DNA from: Candidatus Saccharimonadales bacterium
GTDB lineage: Bacteria; Patescibacteriota; Saccharimonadia; Saccharimonadales; OMJO01
Assembly: GCA_035480035.1 (NCBI GenBank)
Contig: DATIID010000005.1
Coordinates: forward strand, 1 to 45,589
DNA: 45,589 nt
Direction of reading: 5' to 3'
Numbering within the stretch: position 1 is the first letter of the stretch; every line of letters begins with the position of its first letter. Under the pieces are notes generated by a model. That model made no database searches. It was not told the origin of the DNA and saw nothing but the letters and a program-made list of their open reading frames with translations. The position numbers were made by a program, and so were the translations under genes. Below are positions 641 through 37,198 of the stretch, piece by piece.

Positions 641-1333
641 CTACTGTTTTGATAAATTGATAAACGTATCTCTCCATTTGTCGAACGTGACCTGGCTAAA
701 ACCACGATCCCCATCGTAAATTTGGGAAAATGGGAAAATCTCACTATCGGTTAATATTTTATAAGTTGCGCCATTTCTAATTTCATCAAAACTTGCAGAT
801 TCTTTGCTTCTTTGTTCCCAATCAAGTTCTTTCTCTAATGAGTCATATTTATCCATTGATTTATCGTCAGGTCTAAATAAACCAGTCCCGCGCAGGTCTC
901 CATTGCTATCTAACACATAGCCAACCACATGATAATAAACTTCTCTTTCATCGTAAACACCACGCCCACTACTTTCTCCATAACTCAATGTTACCGATGA
1001 TATTGATTTTTCTGCATATAAAGGCCACTCTGAAGGTCTAATTTTTTTGCCTCTCCGACCTATCGTTACACCTATTTCATTCTCAGTCAGCCAATTAGCC
1101 ATAGTTTTAGCATCGTTTCTAATTGTTTCGACAATCCTTTTCTGTACAGGCCTTTTTAGTTCATTCTCTCGATATATTCTTTCTAATCGAGTTAACCTTT
1201 CTCGTTTTTTATATTCAATAACCTGGGTCATCATATCAATACCAAATCTATGTTGTGCTACAGTCTCGGGTTTGGGAGCATTGATTACTTCCTCTATTAC
1301 AGCTTCAATTGGTTTAATGTCATCAAACTCCAT
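641..1333 (-). CDS. hypothetical protein, 230 aa (orphan array gene 1)
   Basis: Long ORF with an ATG start and its own promoter 9 nt upstream. No recognisable motif. Confidence 0.6.
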   Translation of the reverse strand: MEFDDIKPIEAVIEEVINAPKPETVAQHRFGIDMMTQVIEYKKRERLTRLERIYRENELKRPVQKRIVETIRNDAKTMANWLTENEIGVTIGRRGKKIRPSEWPLYAEKSISSVTLSYGESSGRGVYDEREVYYHVVGYVLDSNGDLRGTGLFRPDDKSMDKYDSLEKELDWEQRSKESASFDEIRNGATYKILTDSEIFPFSQIYDGDRGFSQVTFDKWRDTFINLSKQ

Positions 1334-1342
1334 AATTTGGTT

Positions 1343-1384
1343 ATTATACTAACTTACTTGATTTTTGCAAGCTTGAGCAGGATT
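1343..1384 (-). promoter_or_regulatory. promoter module with conserved upstream block (copy A)
   Basis: Minus strand reads AATCCTGCTCAAGC-TTGCAA (-35, 1365-1370), 16 nt, TATAAT (1343-1348), then 9 nt to the ATG. The block starts on the last base of the upstream stop codon. Confidence 0.6.
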
Positions 1385-1875
1385 CAGTCTTCAAACCTGT
1401 ATGTGTAATTATTGCCAACGGGGCTGGTGCAACGTATCACCTCATGGCCAAAGAAGCGCCATCTTTTAGCTGCTTCTGGACCACCTTCGCACGTACTCAA
1501 AGCCGCATCGGCGCGTTGCTGTTGCGTGTCAATTATTTGGCTCAATAACCGTTCACCTTCAGCGCTATCTCGTTCAGCTTTTTCGTTAGCACGTTGTAAT
1601 TTGTTAAAGCTTTTTTCTTCACGCGCTTTGGTCTTTTCCCAAGCCTTTTTTTCATCTTTACTGCCAAATTCATTAACCCACTCTTCATACTCTATCTTCA
1701 ATGGCAACTCATTTATTAGATCGCGAGTAGTATTATTTTCAATAATAGTAAAACTAAGGTCACTATGAGACTGTCTAGCTTCATCTAATTCGGTGCAGTA
1801 TCTTTCAGCAGTGGCTAAGCATTCAACCACAAATGGGCACTCCTTCAAACATTCGGGATTGACCATATCACTCAT
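1384..1875 (-). CDS. hypothetical protein, 163 aa, Cys-rich N-terminus (orphan array gene 2)
   Basis: ORF with ATG start. The N-terminus has a C-x3-C-x6-C-x8-C pattern and the middle is Lys/Glu-rich. No family recognised. Confidence 0.55.
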   Translation of the reverse strand: MSDMVNPECLKECPFVVECLATAERYCTELDEARQSHSDLSFTIIENNTTRDLINELPLKIEYEEWVNEFGSKDEKKAWEKTKAREEKSFNKLQRANEKAERDSAEGERLLSQIIDTQQQRADAALSTCEGGPEAAKRWRFFGHEVIRCTSPVGNNYTYRFED

Positions 1876-1883
1876 ATTTACAG

Positions 1884-1921
1884 ATTATCAAAGCTTGCCA
1901 AGTTAGCAAGCATGAGCAGAA
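1884..1921 (-). promoter_or_regulatory. promoter module, variant copy B
   Basis: Minus strand reads TAG(stop)-TTCTGCTCATGCTTGCTA ... TGATAATCT, then 6-8 nt to the ATG of the 163-aa ORF. Confidence 0.5.
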
Positions 1922-2332
1922 CTATTCGTGTTTTCCGATAGGTTTAGTTACAAAGTAGAAATCTGGAGTAAAACTAGAACCAATTAGAATCATGTCGATC
2001 ACTTGTCCTGCAATACTGCCAACATGTTTACCATAACGAAGCCATTCATCCCCAGGATCAAACGCAAAACGCTTATCTGTCCGTTCAAAAATAGCCGGAA
2101 CTGAGTCCTCTATCAGACCTAAAGGATTGGGACGGACTGGATTTTCAGCAGCAGCTTGGGCATCTCCTAACCCAGTATATAAAACATACTTAATCGGCAT
2201 AAATTGAGTCAAATCAAGCTTTAGTTCACTTCTTTCATTGCGTCCTGGGAAAGTACCCCCAGTGACAATTACGCTTTCACCGGGTTCCATTACTTCAAAT
2301 GTCTCTACAAACAAATCTCTTTCAGGTGGCAT
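1922..2332 (-). CDS. hypothetical protein, 136 aa (orphan array gene 3)
   Basis: ORF with ATG start and a GGAG Shine-Dalgarno about 8 nt upstream. No family recognised. Confidence 0.55.
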   Translation of the reverse strand: MPPERDLFVETFEVMEPGESVIVTGGTFPGRNERSELKLDLTQFMPIKYVLYTGLGDAQAAAENPVRPNPLGLIEDSVPAIFERTDKRFAFDPGDEWLRYGKHVGSIAGQVIDMILIGSSFTPDFYFVTKPIGKHE

Positions 2333-2353
2333 ACATGACTCCGTCGAACAGTT

Positions 2354-2395
2354 ATTATCCTTTTAAATTGAATTTATGCAAGCTTGAGCAGGATT
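2354..2395 (-). promoter_or_regulatory. promoter module with conserved upstream block (copy C)
   Basis: Minus strand reads AATCCTGCTCAAGC-TTGCAT (2376-2381), 16 nt, GATAAT (2354-2359). The 19-nt block is identical to copy A and overlaps the stop codon of the upstream ORF. Confidence 0.6.
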
Positions 2396-3002
2396 ACTGG
2401 GGCTTATAGCCGTAAACATCTTCGATCTCAGCATGTCTAAAACCTATAAGCTCGGGGATCACTGCCGCTTGTATAAGTTGATCGGCAAATTGTTTCAAAT
2501 TATGCCGCTGACTTTGACCCTTAAATTTAGCGATATGAACCTGGGTAATATAATCGTTTTCTTCCCAAGTGGTTTGAGGTGTACCAGGTATATCATAGTA
2601 TCGATTAATCAGGCTTTGAGTGGCTAGTCGCTCAGCCTTAACCGCAGGATTACGAGTAGCAATCGTTAATGAAGTTTCGGTCTCACCGCGGTGACATAAC
2701 TCATGGAGTGACCAAGGCCAAGTTGGAGCTCCTATATCCTTATCAACGCTTGCAGGTAAACAATCGTCTAAATAATCAGCCAGGTTTTCAGCATCATCAT
2801 CTATTAGTCTTAGGCCATAGCGACTATGGAAGGAACGGACTTCGCCTGGTCCGACAATAGTGGCTCGAGGTTTGTGTCTAAGTTCAACATGTTCAATGCC
2901 AGTTTGCCCAATTATCTTCTGGGCCGCACTTAACCAACGATCACCGAGTGTCTCAACTTCTCTAAATACTCTTACGCTGGGTATTGATTCTGGGTTAGGC
3001 AC
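2394..3002 (-). CDS. hypothetical protein, 202 aa (orphan array gene 4)
   Basis: ORF with a GTG start only 7 nt after a -10 box. No family recognised. Confidence 0.5.
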   Translation of the reverse strand: MPNPESIPSVRVFREVETLGDRWLSAAQKIIGQTGIEHVELRHKPRATIVGPGEVRSFHSRYGLRLIDDDAENLADYLDDCLPASVDKDIGAPTWPWSLHELCHRGETETSLTIATRNPAVKAERLATQSLINRYYDIPGTPQTTWEENDYITQVHIAKFKGQSQRHNLKQFADQLIQAAVIPELIGFRHAEIEDVYGYKPQ

Positions 3003-3009
3003 CCAGAAA

Positions 3010-3047
3010 AATATAAACTAGTTTCAGATTTTTGCAAGCATAAGAGG
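3010..3047 (-). promoter_or_regulatory. promoter module, variant copy D
   Basis: Minus strand reads CCTCTTATGC-TTGCAA (3032-3037), 16 nt, TATATT (3010-3015), then 7 nt to the GTG start. Confidence 0.5.
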
Positions 3048-3059
3048 TTTTAGTTTGGT

Positions 3060-3521
3060 TTATTGTGACGGTAATTCTTCAATGGTTACGTTTGAGTCAT
3101 ATTCTTGGGCCTCTAATAACCCATCGATTTCTTTAAGTGTTTGGCTGACTTCATACCAGTTAGGCATTGGACTAAAGTGGTTATGGCCTGAGATTATTTC
3201 CCTAAAAGGTAACTTCATACGGCTGTTAAATACCCAGTTAGCCTCTTCCACATCACCTAAAGACCACTCGCTTTTACTTGCTACATAATAGGACCTAGTT
3301 GGGTCGTGTTCAAAAGTGTAAGTATGTTTGTGCCGTTTAGACGTATCAGCGATGCTAGTAGGCTGTTCATGAGTAATCACTACGCCAGTTGTAAAGTGAA
3401 TGGCCAGTTCGCCCAGCTCATCAATAATCTTGTCTCTAAAGAATACTAGCTCTTGATCATTGGCAACTTGCTCCATTTCAGAGAGTAAAATTCGTTGGTA
3501 AGGTGTTAATCGTTCAGACAT
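3060..3521 (-). CDS. hypothetical protein, 153 aa (orphan array gene 5)
   Basis: ORF begins 7 nt after the stop of the 70-aa ORF, so the two are probably co-transcribed. Confidence 0.55.
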   Translation of the reverse strand: MSERLTPYQRILLSEMEQVANDQELVFFRDKIIDELGELAIHFTTGVVITHEQPTSIADTSKRHKHTYTFEHDPTRSYYVASKSEWSLGDVEEANWVFNSRMKLPFREIISGHNHFSPMPNWYEVSQTLKEIDGLLEAQEYDSNVTIEELPSQ

Positions 3522-3528
3522 AAGACTT

Positions 3529-3741
3529 TTACTCTAAAACTAAATCAATTTGGTTAAGAATAACTTCCGCAGCCAGGTGAGCTCTGGAAATTTCGTCAGC
3601 TGATTTTGAGTTACCAAAAGTCAGATCTTTATCTGTTGAAGATAAGCCATCAACATTATGAATGTGGTTTGTAGCTGAATTAAAAGTCAATTCCGGCAAA
3701 CCAAACTCAGGAAAATCACCACTGGGTACTAAAGTTCTCAT
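3529..3741 (-). CDS. hypothetical protein, 70 aa (orphan array gene 6)
   Basis: Short ORF whose ATG lies 7 nt after a TAAAAT -10 box (leaderless geometry). Confidence 0.45.
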   Translation of the reverse strand: MRTLVPSGDFPEFGLPELTFNSATNHIHNVDGLSSTDKDLTFGNSKSADEISRAHLAAEVILNQIDLVLE

Positions 3742-3748
3742 TTACCAT

Positions 3749-3790
3749 ATTTTAACATGCTTACACTGTTTAAGCAATAGTAGGATGGCG
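3749..3790 (-). promoter_or_regulatory. promoter, degenerate copy E of the module
   Basis: Minus strand reads TAA(stop)-CGCCATCCTACTA-TTGCTT (3772-3777), 17 nt, TAAAAT (3749-3754). Confidence 0.45.
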
Positions 3791-4345
3791 TTAGATGGCG
3801 ACGCCGACGTCTTCGAGTTTTTGAGTTAGCTTGTGGTCGAGGTGCCAGCCATCCATCTCATAAGCTAACATCGATAATACCTGATGGCCGAGATTTCGCT
3901 CGACACTTGATAGTTCTTCTTCGGGATGTTTGACGATTCGATGATAGCCAATTTCTGGCTGCTTGATCTCTGAGAAGGCGGGGTGTGGAGTTTTGATATC
4001 TGGGGTCTGAAAAGCTATAGTTGCTCGGTCAAGACGCAAAAATTTAAGATCTGATTCACCTTCTTTAATCTTAAAGCGAGCCTCAGATTTGGGTGGCATG
4101 ATATATTGACCACGAGATTTCGACATTGGCATTAATCCATCGCCATGATACGAGGCGGCTGTTCGGACAATGGCATTTCCTAAAGTACTTTTTAGTTCGC
4201 CGATTGTTTGAGAATGATGAACTTCCAAAAGTGTTGGCAGCCATAAATGAGGCAAAAAAGAACCTGAACGGTTTTCGAATATATAGCGGTCTTTACCGTT
4301 AACTTTGGCTAATTCTAATTTAGGCATTTCTAATGATACTGACAT
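3791..4345 (-). CDS. hypothetical protein, 184 aa (orphan array gene 7)
   Basis: ORF with ATG start. A TTGCCC-17-TTAAAT promoter candidate lies in 4395-4425. No family recognised. Confidence 0.55.
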   Translation of the reverse strand: MSVSLEMPKLELAKVNGKDRYIFENRSGSFLPHLWLPTLLEVHHSQTIGELKSTLGNAIVRTAASYHGDGLMPMSKSRGQYIMPPKSEARFKIKEGESDLKFLRLDRATIAFQTPDIKTPHPAFSEIKQPEIGYHRIVKHPEEELSSVERNLGHQVLSMLAYEMDGWHLDHKLTQKLEDVGVAI

Positions 4346-4434: not shown

Positions 4435-7062
4435 TTATTTCTTAGATTTTGGTTTGGTTTCGGGTTTAGCTTTAGTTTCTTCAGGTTTTTCGGTGGTTTC
4501 CTCTTCATCTTCATCAATTGTCTTCTCAACTAAAGCTAACGAAGCAACGGTGTCGCCATCATTTAGACGCATTATTCTAACACCTTGAGTAGCGCGGCCA
4601 AGTGATGGAATATCCTTCAGTCCAAGACGGATTGTTTGCCCATGCGTCGAAATAATGATCAGTTCTTGAGTATCATCTTTAAGTGTTTTAACACCCATAA
4701 GGTTACCGGTTTTACTGTTAACCACTGCTGAACGGATACCAACTCCACCACGAGCATGCGCTGTAAACTGAGAAATCTTGGTTCGTTTTCCATAACCGTG
4801 TTGGCTAATCACAAAAATACTAGAACCTTCTTCGACAATGTCCATGCCAATAACTTGGTCGCCGGTGCGCAGCCGAATGCCACGAACACCACGCGAAACA
4901 CGGCCCATTGGACGAGCATCTTTTTCATGAAATCGGATGGCTTGGCCTTGCGACGTCGAAATGACAATTTCATTGTTACTGTCGGTTTGACGAATCCATT
5001 TTAGTTCGTCACCATCGTCCAAATTGATAGCAATTAAGCCAGTTTGACGAACGTTTTGATACTGCTCAAATGGCGTCTTCTTCACAACACCTCGGATGGT
5101 ACACATTAGCAAATTACCGTCTTTAGACGTCTTAGAGACATTTATGACTGAGCTGACTACTTCTTCGGGTTGCAGTTGTAGTAAATTAACCAACGCAACA
5201 CCTTTAGCGTTCAAACCCACCGCTGGGACCTCATAGGTTTTTAGACGGAAAACTCGGCCTTTGTTGGTGAAGAACAGTAAAAAGTCGTGAGTGCTGGCAT
5301 AAATCACGTGATCAATCACGTCTTCTTCTCTGGTAGACATGCCTCTTTTGCCCTTTCCACCCCTGTTTTGGCGTCGATATTCGGCAATCTGAGACCGTTT
5401 GATGTAGTTTGCTGACGTAAGTGTTACAACAACCTGCTCGTCAGGAATCATGTCTTCATCACTCATTTTGCCAAGTTCACCGACCACAACTTTTGTTCTA
5501 CGATCATCACCAAACTGCTTTTTAATGTCCAGTAGTTCATCTTTGACGATTTTAAGAATGCGTTTTTCGTCAGCCAGAATAGTTTCAAGCTCAGCAATTA
5601 TTTTGATTAGCTCAGCCAGCTCGTCTTCAATTTTCTTACGCTCTAGCCCAGCAAGTGTGCGCAGCTGCATCGCCAAAATGGCTTTGGCTTGAATTTCGGT
5701 CAGTTTGAACTTCTTGATTAGGTTTTCTTGGGCTTCATCAGTGGTTTGGCTAGCCCTAATGGTTTTAATTACTTCGTCGATGTGATCAAGCGCCGTCTTA
5801 AGCCCTTCTAAAATATGAGCGCGCTCTTTGGCTTTGCGCAGTTCAAACTCAGTCCGGCGACGAACAACAACCTGACGGTGCTTAATATATTCGCCCAAGA
5901 TGTCTTGAAGCCCCAGAACACGCGGTTGAATACCTTCAATCAGGGCCAGCATATTGTAGTGAACTGTCAGCTGCAGCGGTGTTAATTTGTAAAGTTGGTT
6001 GAGCAACTTTTTTGGGTAAGCGTCTCTTTTAAGATCAATCACCAAACGGACATTGCCGCGGGCCGATTCGTCACGCAAATCACTAATACCACTGATTTTT
6101 TTGTCTTTGTAGAGATCGGCGATCTTTTCGAGTAGACCGGCTTTATTAACACTATATGGGATTTCGCTAATAATAATCTGTTGTTTGCCTTTGGCAGTTT
6201 CTTCAACTGAGGCAACGCCGCGAACTACTACGCCACCACGACCAGTCGCAAAGGCAGTTCTAATGGAATCACGGCCATAGACTACTCCACCGGTTGGGAA
6301 ATCAGGACCCTTGACGTGTTCCAGTAAATCGTCCAGCGTGGCGTCCGGTTTATCAATCAGAGTTACGGTAGCGTCAACAATTTCCGACAAGTTGTGTGGT
6401 GGAATATTAGTGGCCATACCGACGGCAATACCGACTTGTCCGTTAATTAACAGATTGGGTAGTTTGGCCGGCAAAACTTCTGGCTCTTGCTCACTCCCGT
6501 CGTAGTTATCGCGAAACGGCACGGTTTCTTTATCAATATCTTCAAGTAGCGCGCCGCCAGCTTTAGCCATACGAGCCTCGGTGTAACGTTGAGCAGCTGG
6601 CGGATCGCCATCCATCGAACCAAAGTTACCTTGCCCGTCGACTAACAAGTAACGGGTTGACCAGTCCTGGGCTAGTCGAACCATAGCATCATAAATCGCT
6701 ACGTCGCCGTGCGGATGGTATTTACCCATGACATCGCCGGTTATCCTTGCGCTTTTAACGAACTTAGAGCCCGATTTCCAGCCGTTTTTATCCATGGAGT
6801 ATAAAATACGTCGGTGTACTGGCTTGAGGCCGTCACGGACGTCTGGCAAGGCTCTAGCCACAATCACGCTCATCGAGTAGCGCAAGTAGCTATCTTCCAT
6901 GACGTTCTCAACACTGCGTAGCTCCAGAGTTTTACTGTGGTCACTTTTAATTATCTGAGTGTCATCAATCAGACTGGTTGGACTAGCAATAATCTCACCC
7001 TCGGCCGGATCAATTGGATCAACAACCGGCTGGTCTTTAACTTCGTCAATGTCGTCAGCCAT
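4435..7062 (-). CDS. gyrA: DNA gyrase subunit A
   Basis: 875 aa with GKYHPHGD and [10 protein letters not shown] (active-site Tyr region) motifs and C-terminal repeated beta-pinwheel-like segments. An acidic/Lys-rich tail and a ~35-aa N-terminal extension are present. The start lies 1 nt after the gyrB stop. Confidence 0.97.
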
Positions 7063-18066: not shown

Positions 18067-18104
18067 TTCTTATGCTTGCATAAGTTGTGACATATACTTA
18101 TATT
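18067..18104 (+). promoter_or_regulatory. promoter module, variant copy F
   Basis: TTCTTATGC-TTGCAT (18076-18081), 17 nt, TATATT (18099-18104), then 14 nt to the ATG. Confidence 0.5.
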
Positions 18105-18118
18105 TCAAGAACTAGATT

Positions 18119-18502
18119 ATGAGCAATGCCGAATTACCATCTCCAAGAGTTTTATTATTTCACCCCAATGAAAGAACTTTAAATATGGCATACAAAGGTA
18201 GCCAATTAGCAGGATGGCAGTCTCTGCCATATGATGATCCTCGTCTAGCTTTTGAAGAGTTAGATGAAAATATAAACGCACTTGTTGCAGGCATGCCTAA
18301 TTTGAGATCCATGGGCGAAAGAGCTGCAGTAGAGCCATTATTTTATAAATCTACTGAGTTGGATATTCCGCGAGCAATAGTGTCGTCATCTCGAGATGCA
18401 AATACATTTGTTCGCGACGGCTCACTTGACATAGTTATACCTACTTCATCAGTAAGGTCCGGTGTAACAAAATGGTTACTCGATTTAGCAGCTAATCAAT
18501 AA
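18119..18502 (+). CDS. hypothetical protein, 127 aa
   Basis: ORF with ATG start and no Shine-Dalgarno. The N-terminus RVLLFHPNERT faintly resembles a degenerate receiver domain (weak). Confidence 0.5.
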   Translation: MSNAELPSPRVLLFHPNERTLNMAYKGSQLAGWQSLPYDDPRLAFEELDENINALVAGMPNLRSMGERAAVEPLFYKSTELDIPRAIVSSSRDANTFVRDGSLDIVIPTSSVRSGVTKWLLDLAANQ

Positions 18503-19666: not shown

Positions 19667-19705
19667 GTACTCATGCTTGCGTTTTGAGCACTGAGGTTGT
19701 TTACT
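19667..19705 (+). promoter_or_regulatory. promoter module, variant copy G (weak -10)
   Basis: GTACTCATGC-TTGCGT (19677-19682), 17 nt, TTTACT. AAGGAG Shine-Dalgarno lies 8 nt before the ATG at 19729. Confidence 0.35.
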
Positions 19706-19728: not shown

Positions 19729-20115
19729 ATGCCAGAAGGAATGCGGGGCGATAGAAGACCATTTCAGCCAGTCATGGACGAGGAGGCCTTCGCAGATCGT
19801 ACTAAAGAAGTATTAGAAAGCGTGATTGAGTCAAGGACACCTGCACTTGTCACAAGAGGCGGTAAGCTGGCCGCCATTATAGTGCCATACACCATGCAAG
19901 ATGTAGCTGAGAATCTTCTGCTTGATCCCGAAGTTAGGCGATCACTTGAAGGAGCTGATCAAGCATTTCTCGAAGGACGTACCCGGCCATCTTCTGAAGC
20001 TCTAGCTGAAGATGATAAAGATCCATTTCATCGGTCGCTTGAAAATATCAGTGTGCGGCGAGAGAATCTTAGCCAACATCAACCTAGTGAAGTGCCACCG
20101 ATACTCGAGACTTAA
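19729..20115 (+). CDS. Phd/YefM-like antitoxin-fold protein with extended C-terminus
   Basis: TPALVTRGGKLAAIIVPY ... ENLLLDPEVRRSLEGADQAFLEG aligns by eye to the YefM core (ILITRqnGeacVLms ... YLLRSPANARRLMDSIDSL). Confidence 0.5.
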   Translation: MPEGMRGDRRPFQPVMDEEAFADRTKEVLESVIESRTPALVTRGGKLAAIIVPYTMQDVAENLLLDPEVRRSLEGADQAFLEGRTRPSSEALAEDDKDPFHRSLENISVRRENLSQHQPSEVPPILET

Positions 20116-37126: not shown

Positions 37127-37198
37127 ATTTTTATTCTTTACTAACTCCTATTAACATTATAGACCCCTAAGTCAACAACCTTGAGCATTTGGAGTCGT

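Follow-up and report, generated by a model that had tools for sequence, protein, structure and literature searches.

The window analysed here, a whole stretch of 45,589 nt, is contig DATIID010000005.1 (C5; positions 1 to 45,589 of the forward strand) of a Candidatus Saccharimonadales bacterium (NCBI GenBank assembly GCA_035480035.1), the genome of which amounts to 817 kb on eight contigs and is an estimated 98.6% complete. Between gyrA and the promoter of the 16S rRNA gene lies an array of seven orphan genes with normal coding statistics. In a Pfam scan none of the seven has a family above the cut-off, and the same holds for the motif-driven genes of the window (78-230 aa). Each of the last four genes of the array has a promoter of its own, set directly against the preceding stop codon, in which an 8-nt word, GCTYAWGC, runs into the -35 hexamer. 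This element marks a separate class of promoters found across the order Saccharimonadales, and a dedicated DNA-binding factor may read it.

An initial annotation, made from the letters of this stretch, had drawn attention to a 19-mer, AATCCTGCTCAAGCTTGCA, present twice on the minus strand, overlapping in both places the stop codon of the upstream open reading frame (ORF) and supplying with its 3' end the -35 hexamer (TTGCAA or TTGCAT) of the next gene. Both copies are exact and their coordinates are correct (Table 1); copy A overlaps the TGA at 1384-1386. In shuffled sequence only 0.03 matches to the 19-mer are found even when up to three mismatches are allowed. Four of the five variants listed with it, at 1904-1921, 3032-3047, 18067-18081 and 19667-19682, are members with 0, 1, 1 and 2 mismatches respectively and the same -35/-10 geometry. 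The fifth, at 37176-37190, had been taken as evidence of variable spacing to the -10 box. It is probably no member and we have rejected it as such: it has two mismatches, lacks a -10 box 16-18 nt beyond its TTG and is at chance level. The promoter at this place likely uses a TTGACT 3 nt further on.

Table 1. Positions of the motif sites and of neighbouring features in the window
Feature	Position	Strand	Layout	Gene behind the promoter
16S rRNA gene, 5' end	1-358	minus		
Array of seven orphan genes, gyrA to 16S rRNA promoter	641-4345	minus		
Core promoter A	1331-1370	minus	-35 TTGCAA (1365-1370), 16-nt spacer, -10 TATAAT (1343-1348), 9 nt, ATG (1331-1333)	230-aa orphan, 641-1333
19-mer copy A	1366-1384	minus	last base of stop TGA (1384), ATCCT, 13-mer core GCTCAAGCTTGCA (1366-1378)	
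Third exact member	1882-1921	minus	core GCTCATGCTTGCT (1905-1917), 4 nt past stop TAG (1922-1924); -35 TTGCTA (1904-1909), -10 TAATCT (1882-1887), ATG 6 nt on (leaderless type)	163-aa orphan, 1384-1875
Core promoter B	2330-2381	minus	-35 TTGCAT (2376-2381), 16-nt spacer, -10 GATAAT (2354-2359), 21-nt leader with GGAG, ATG	136-aa orphan, 1922-2332
19-mer copy B	2377-2395	minus	overlaps stop TAA (2394-2396) of ORF 2394-3002; 13-mer core 2377-2389	
One-mismatch member	3010-3047	minus	core TCTTATGCTTGCA (3033-3045), -35 TTGCAA (3032-3037), -10 TATATT (3010-3015), GTG 7 nt past -10	202-aa orphan, 2394-3002
gyrA	4435-7062			
One-mismatch member	18067-18104	plus	core TCTTATGCTTGCA (18068-18080), -35 TTGCAT, 17-nt spacer, -10 TATATT (18099-18104)	127-aa orphan, 18119-18502 (plus), just upstream of infC and rplT
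Weaker two-mismatch member	19667-19705	plus	core ACTCATGCTTGCG (19669-19681), -35 TTGCGT, weak -10 TTTACT (19700-19705), leader with AAGGAG	128-aa gene, 19729-20115, after rplT
Doubtful site	37174-37190	minus	GCTCAAGGTTGTT, two mismatches	

The layout of these sites is that of sigma-70 type promoters, with -35-like and -10-like hexamers 16-18 bp apart just upstream of a gene start. As judged from the sequence, the functional unit is a 13-mer consisting of GCTYAWGC joined gaplessly to a -35 of the form TTGCW, with the -10 box 16-17 nt later and, in many cases, a start codon 6-9 nt beyond it (leaderless type). The 8-nt word thus occupies positions of about -43 to -36, and a short run of T usually precedes it (about -44 to -47). 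For a scan of the genome the degenerate core GCTYAWGCTTGCW was used with zero to two mismatches and compared with first-order Markov simulations, the non-coding fraction (9.0% of the genome) being taken from our own gene calls. Seven exact sites were found (0-1 in the simulations, about 0.4 expected), all seven of them non-coding. With one mismatch there were 19 sites (6-12 simulated), nine of them non-coding, and with two mismatches 136 (115-150 simulated), of which 30 are non-coding. All of the exact sites (7/7) and all of the non-coding one-mismatch sites (9/9) have a TAnnnT box 16-18 nt past the TTGCW. Since the non-coding sites with at most one mismatch all precede a -10-like box, the frequency in coding DNA corresponds to background and that in non-coding DNA lies far above it; the motif thereby survives the comparison with background frequency by which the initial annotation had proposed to judge it.

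The initial annotation had also stated that the motif would be uninteresting if it were the generic promoter consensus. A logo built from 65 intergenic promoters under a stringent definition shows nothing beyond A/T-richness before the -35, and the block therefore differs from the generic consensus. A match to the 8-mer in at least six of eight positions directly before the -35 is found in 28 of 381 called promoters, as against 3-10 at shifted control positions, and promoters with a TTGC-type -35 have a bimodal distribution of matches with a second mode at seven to eight of eight positions. Some 5-7% of the promoters thus form a separate class. The earlier remark that housekeeping promoters lack the upstream word is borne out by those of 16S rRNA, gyrB and infC in the window, which match it in no more than five of eight positions.

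Promoters of this class have further features in common. The start codon lies within 10 nt of the -10 box, as in leaderless messages, in 57% of them versus 28% of other promoters. A TG-extended -10 is found in 13% versus 28% of the rest, a difference that is not significant. Their -35 matches TTGACA less well than average, and the genes behind them are shorter (median 164 aa versus 218 aa). Copies of the 8-mer word number 206 in the genome, 56 of which fall within the non-coding 9%. The 8-mer GCTTATGC also directly abuts -10 boxes, as GCTTATGC-TATAAT or GCTTATGC-TAAAAT, at C6:168-181, C6:8675-8688, C8:3235-3248 and C1:40930-40943.

The element is not private to the orphan genes of this window. 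In 41 related genomes the core has 99 matches, versus 10 for a reversed control pattern, and 218 of 301 sampled Saccharimonadales genomes have the stricter form GCTYATGCTTGCW one or more times without mismatch. In about 285 other Patescibacteria the matches are at control level (some 28 versus 25). From the matches across the order and the control-level counts elsewhere it follows that the element is specific to the order Saccharimonadales and extends beyond one genome. Copy number is overdispersed, ranging from 0 to 8-10 per genome, and a single genus contains genomes with six copies and with none. The zero-hit genomes have no promoter-type sites and no enrichment of such sites. A consensus that has drifted in these genomes was considered and rejected, the 9-mer matches there being mostly chance matches of the coding type without a -10 box.

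The anatomy of the promoter in the relatives was examined in 69 unique sites from about 30 genomes and in an independent second set (60 sites, 11 additional genomes). It is the same in both sets, with a T at position -1 in 64% of sites and a run of T just upstream. The best -10 box is at a spacer of 16-18 in 50 of the 69 sites. In 24/69 sites of the first set the first ATG is 6-7 nt past the -10 box, and in 24/59 of the second the start lies 5-10 nt past it; roughly 40% of motif promoters are predicted to give an mRNA that is leaderless or nearly so, with the start codon 5-10 nt past the -10. A strict -10 criterion was passed by 33/69 and 25/60 sites in relatives, and by 1/79 exact chance matches in unrelated viral contigs. 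An origin of the motif in phages was rejected, since viral contigs yield only isolated matches, at chance frequency and with no -10 box behind them. No relation exists between the spacers and flanks of one site and those of another, which indicates that the 13-mer has been conserved through selection and not by recent copying.

Within this one genome the identity at some sites reaches further. The two 19-mers are alike for 6 nt past the core, and the third exact member (C5:1905) has 17 nt (TTCTGCTCATGCTTGCT) in common with a site on another contig (C2:1958). This points to a single promoter having been copied locally or passed on by gene conversion. A pair of tandem genes on the latter contig (C2:1278-1975, minus strand; 85 and 89 aa), mutually dissimilar by BLAST, both have exact motif promoters, and from the -10 box as far as the ribosome-binding site the two sequences are almost the same (TAAAATCAAAC[A/G]TCTAAGGAGT).

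The initial annotation had suggested a regulon of orphan genes. The enrichment for genes without a Pfam family has been upheld; the restriction to them has not, because the targets also include purA, dcd, ssb, tmk and purB/D/K/M/O. The 16 best sites in this genome precede 12 genes without a Pfam family together with purA, dcd, an amidohydrolase gene and a Pup-ligase-family gene, and sites that match less well lie before ssb and an alpha/beta hydrolase gene. The Pup-ligase-family gene (PafA/Dop-like, PF03136; C1:471443-472837, minus strand) stands behind a one-mismatch promoter. The 128-aa gene of the window behind the weaker member has a sub-threshold match to PhdYeFM. In relatives, 65 proteins of the first motif-driven set hit 28 Pfam families and 59 of the second set hit 14, compared with 74 families hit by 65 upstream-neighbour ORFs from the same loci, and orphans are therefore truly over-represented. 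Annotated targets in the relatives lean to nucleotide and DNA metabolism: purK, purD, purM and purB (all four absent from the present genome), comEC, dcd, IMP cyclohydrolase (purO, twice), tmk (twice) and LTD proteins (three times). Other patchily distributed biosynthetic genes (dapA-like, leuB-like twice, ilvC) are found as well, as are rpoD-like genes; in G009 a motif promoter precedes an extra sigma-70 paralogue. Apart from the three LTD proteins BLAST revealed no paralogy among the targets of this genome or among those of the relatives. What the targets share is that they are accessory, self-contained single genes, orphans and others.

Two of these targets could be followed through their orthologues. 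The amidohydrolase is present in 10 of 61 genomes, and three orthologues (in this genome, L107 and L108), the proteins of which are only 31-38% identical, retain the 13-mer with zero or one mismatch in the same place; beyond it nothing in their upstream regions aligns. Of the dcd promoters, about 10 of 30 retain the 13-mer with at most two mismatches. A recombination scar, one of the two explanations offered in the initial annotation, finds little support in view of the fixed geometry to the -10 box and the recurrence of the motif at one position ahead of the dcd orthologues, and likewise ahead of those of the amidohydrolase. A factor-binding site, which was the other, is plausible. The dcd promoter itself (C1, about 204640-204710, minus strand; loci L076-L104) is nearly invariant in many families of the order, including its spacer TTGCGTCATGGTTTTGACAAACCGTACAAT, and the GTCA..TGAC within it looks like a separate conserved operator.

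A profile search with PF04542 found one sigma-70 gene in this genome, so that the motif class is not the regulon of an alternative sigma factor. Many relatives possess one to three additional paralogues of sigma-70 (32-52% identity) that have no counterpart here, and in several of them these lie a few kb from the primary rpoD on the same contig (G029:C12:136682-141894, G036:C15:5722-14571 and G013:C1:34563-37265). They do not track the motif counts, and an alternative sigma factor was also rejected on this ground. Among relatives, identity of the primary sigma factor is 85-97% over the segment searched. No difference in its region 4 separates this genome (seven copies of the motif), G006 (four copies) and G004 (none), and the C-terminal domain of the alpha subunit shows no systematic difference between motif-rich and motif-free genomes. 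Differences in these two domains were rejected as the cause, because both are essentially identical in genomes of either kind.

WhiB-like (Wbl) proteins bind sigma region 4, and two genes matching PF02467 are, unexpectedly, present in this genome (C1:359804-359998, plus strand; C1:273148-273360, minus strand). The family is known essentially from Actinobacteria and their phages. It was also found in 28 of the 41 relatives, and the only control genome matched was that of Corynebacterium glutamicum. As readers of the word these proteins were rejected, since their presence across genomes does not track the motif: the near-complete G013, G028 and G035 have three to five exact copies and no PF02467 match, while G031 and G037 have three Wbl genes and no motif. 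WhiB7-type promoters require a Wbl protein and have an A/T-rich tract 3-6 bp upstream of the -35; the occurrence of motif genomes without Wbl, and of Wbl genomes without the motif, sets the present class apart from them.

The block is the upstream half of a distinct sigma-A promoter class specific to Saccharimonadales. In the reading that we favour, and to which we would give an even chance, GCTYAWGC would serve as the docking site of a dedicated, putative DNA-binding protein, which might adjoin RNA polymerase at about -40 and determine how active the promoter is; we lean slightly towards an activator. The single sigma factor, the invariance of region 4 and of the alpha C-terminal domain, the overdispersed copy numbers, the zero-hit genomes devoid of sites, and the bare promoters of 16S rRNA and other housekeeping genes of the window together argue, indirectly, for a dispensable trans-acting factor and not for simple reading by the polymerase. 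The slightly weak core elements of the motif promoters (TG extension and -35) were also counted towards a separate factor. As with class II sites, the word has a fixed position at the -35, is confined to a subset of promoters and is conserved before orthologous genes. Class II activator promoters of the sigma-70 type (CRP or FNR near -41.5; lambda cI at PRM) similarly have a site that adjoins or overlaps the -35 at a fixed distance from the -10, and a somewhat sub-optimal core. They differ in that their sites are palindromes of 16-22 bp, whereas the word here is asymmetric and 8 nt long, the -35 is well conserved and the activator is only putative.

Several points weigh against a dedicated factor. 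The patchiness could follow the content of accessory genes and DNA of a genome rather than the presence of a factor, and exact 13-mer counts per genome are a noisy measure of motif use. No reader protein was identified, WhiB-like proteins being the only family profiled across genomes. A palindrome was rejected on inspection of the sequence, and in this the word is unlike most dimeric operator sites. In the dcd promoters the spacer is better conserved than the 8-mer, and there is the second register, in which the TATG of the word fused to a -10 box reads as a TRTG-type extended -10.

A more far-reaching version of the dedicated factor, which we put forward tentatively and consider somewhat unlikely, makes GCTYAWGC-TTGCW the code of a Saccharimonadales-specific master regulator of the accessory genome, gained and lost between close species. 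Under it the targets would comprise the orphans, with a probable role in host interaction, and genes of nucleotide scavenging and synthesis (dcd, tmk, purA/B/D/K/M/O, ssb, comEC).

Alternatively, RNA polymerase may read the word itself, the 8-mer and the run of T extending the -35 contact through sigma-A region 4 or the alpha C-terminal domain and strengthening promoters that lack a TG-extended -10, with no factor involved. The strict joining of the word to the -35 in a single orientation, the position of the T-run at the place of UP-element contacts, the lower share of TG-extended -10 boxes and the single sigma factor of this genome all agree with this, as does the placement of the word next to -10 boxes, where RNA polymerase is known to contact TATG. 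We nevertheless regard it as unlikely. The matches are bimodal where a graded distribution would be looked for, the word is missing from the window's housekeeping promoters, that of 16S rRNA included, genomes with essentially identical sigma-A region 4 and alpha C-terminal domain have from zero to eight exact copies, and promoter-type sites are not enriched in the zero-hit genomes. UP elements, which are A/T-rich, occur typically at strong promoters such as those of rRNA, lie at -40 to -60 and are contacted by the alpha C-terminal domain, resemble the element in standing upstream of the -35 and in the T-run. GCTYAWGC, in contrast, has four G/C positions, is information-rich and all-or-none, and is patchily used while the alpha C-terminal domain is invariant; with its absence from the 16S promoter, identity with an UP element was rejected. 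The TRTG motif of the -16 region, or TG-extended -10, of Gram-positive bacteria is matched by the TATG of GCTTATGC where this is joined to -10 boxes. In the motif promoters, however, the word is 23 bp further upstream, before the -35, where the extended -10 region of sigma cannot read it.

Middle promoters of phage T4 likewise have TGCTT (the core of the MotA box) beside a sigma-70 -10 box. The MotA box takes the place of the -35 and has its centre at -30, 11-13 bp from the -10, whereas the spacing of the -35 is normal here. From TGCTTGC to the -10 box the distance is 15-16 nt in the members of the window, and a MotA box was rejected. MotA and AsiA are encoded by phages, and nothing was found that connects the motif with phages.

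That the block is a portable joint, moving with accessory genes as a promoter-plus-ORF module and doubling as a point of insertion or exchange, which corresponds to the recombination scar of the initial annotation, appears quite improbable to us, even though it adjoins the preceding stop codon directly and most of its targets are orphans or genes of patchy occurrence. The sites are moreover clustered, with five in 3.7 kb here, two adjacent ones on C2 and several per contig in relatives, and the 19-nt and 17-nt identities exceed the functional core. Against this, the unrelated spacers and flanks show that the sites have no recent common descent. In many families the motif stands at the corresponding position ahead of dcd, which is a core gene, and before the amidohydrolase orthologues it is only the promoter-relevant 13-mer that is conserved. 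The arrangement recalls the cassette arrays of integrons, in which single small orphan genes are parted by a short recurring junction element. The attC site is an imperfect inverted repeat of 60-140 bp, however, the cassettes are promoterless and an integrase lies nearby; the present element is of 13-19 nt, has no inverted repeat on inspection and provides every unit with its own promoter, and identity with attC was rejected. No recombinase family turned up in Pfam scans of 20 small window proteins, which do not cover all ORFs, and no dedicated search for an integrase was run. All further assemblies found come from the same organism, and the one aligned to the array is identical, so that they offer no variant in which exchange could be seen.

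Chance similarity or a general promoter consensus, for which the commonness of TTGCW as a -35 in this genome and the near-chance numbers of two-mismatch sites overall might speak, has next to no probability and was rejected on the promoter logo, the offset controls and the enrichment, given seven exact sites for about 0.4 expected, all non-coding, a roughly tenfold excess over the reversed control in the 41 relatives and a motif carried by only some 5-7% of promoters.

The genomes of candidate-phyla-radiation bacteria are tiny and encode one or few sigma factors and only a few regulators that can be recognised. Full-text literature searches turned up no paper on Saccharibacteria that deals with promoter motifs or with WhiB, and no published work on the control of transcription in candidate-phyla-radiation bacteria. 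The element allows the co-expression of genes of unknown function to be predicted, is a bait sequence with which the regulator could be fished out, and is a portable promoter part for the emerging genetic tools of Saccharibacteria; natural transformation of a tractable laboratory strain has been demonstrated (PMC10187176). If the polymerase alone reads the word, it would represent a new kind of core-promoter element. The master regulator, if real, would provide the first cis-regulatory code and regulon for a candidate-phyla-radiation lineage as far as these searches show.

The orphan array has no relatives at the DNA level in 30 related genomes, and its 230-aa orphan has no homologue except itself among 5.8 billion proteins. 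In a second assembly of the same organism (L277, NCBI GCA_964572305.1) the aligned array is 100% identical. The same order of genes is found on three shorter contigs, a comparison of gene order and not an alignment. Lastly, a plus-strand GCTCATGC-TATGAT at 561-574 overlaps the TATCAT -10 box of the minus-strand 16S rRNA promoter, and could be an antisense extended -10 promoter aimed into the last orphan gene.

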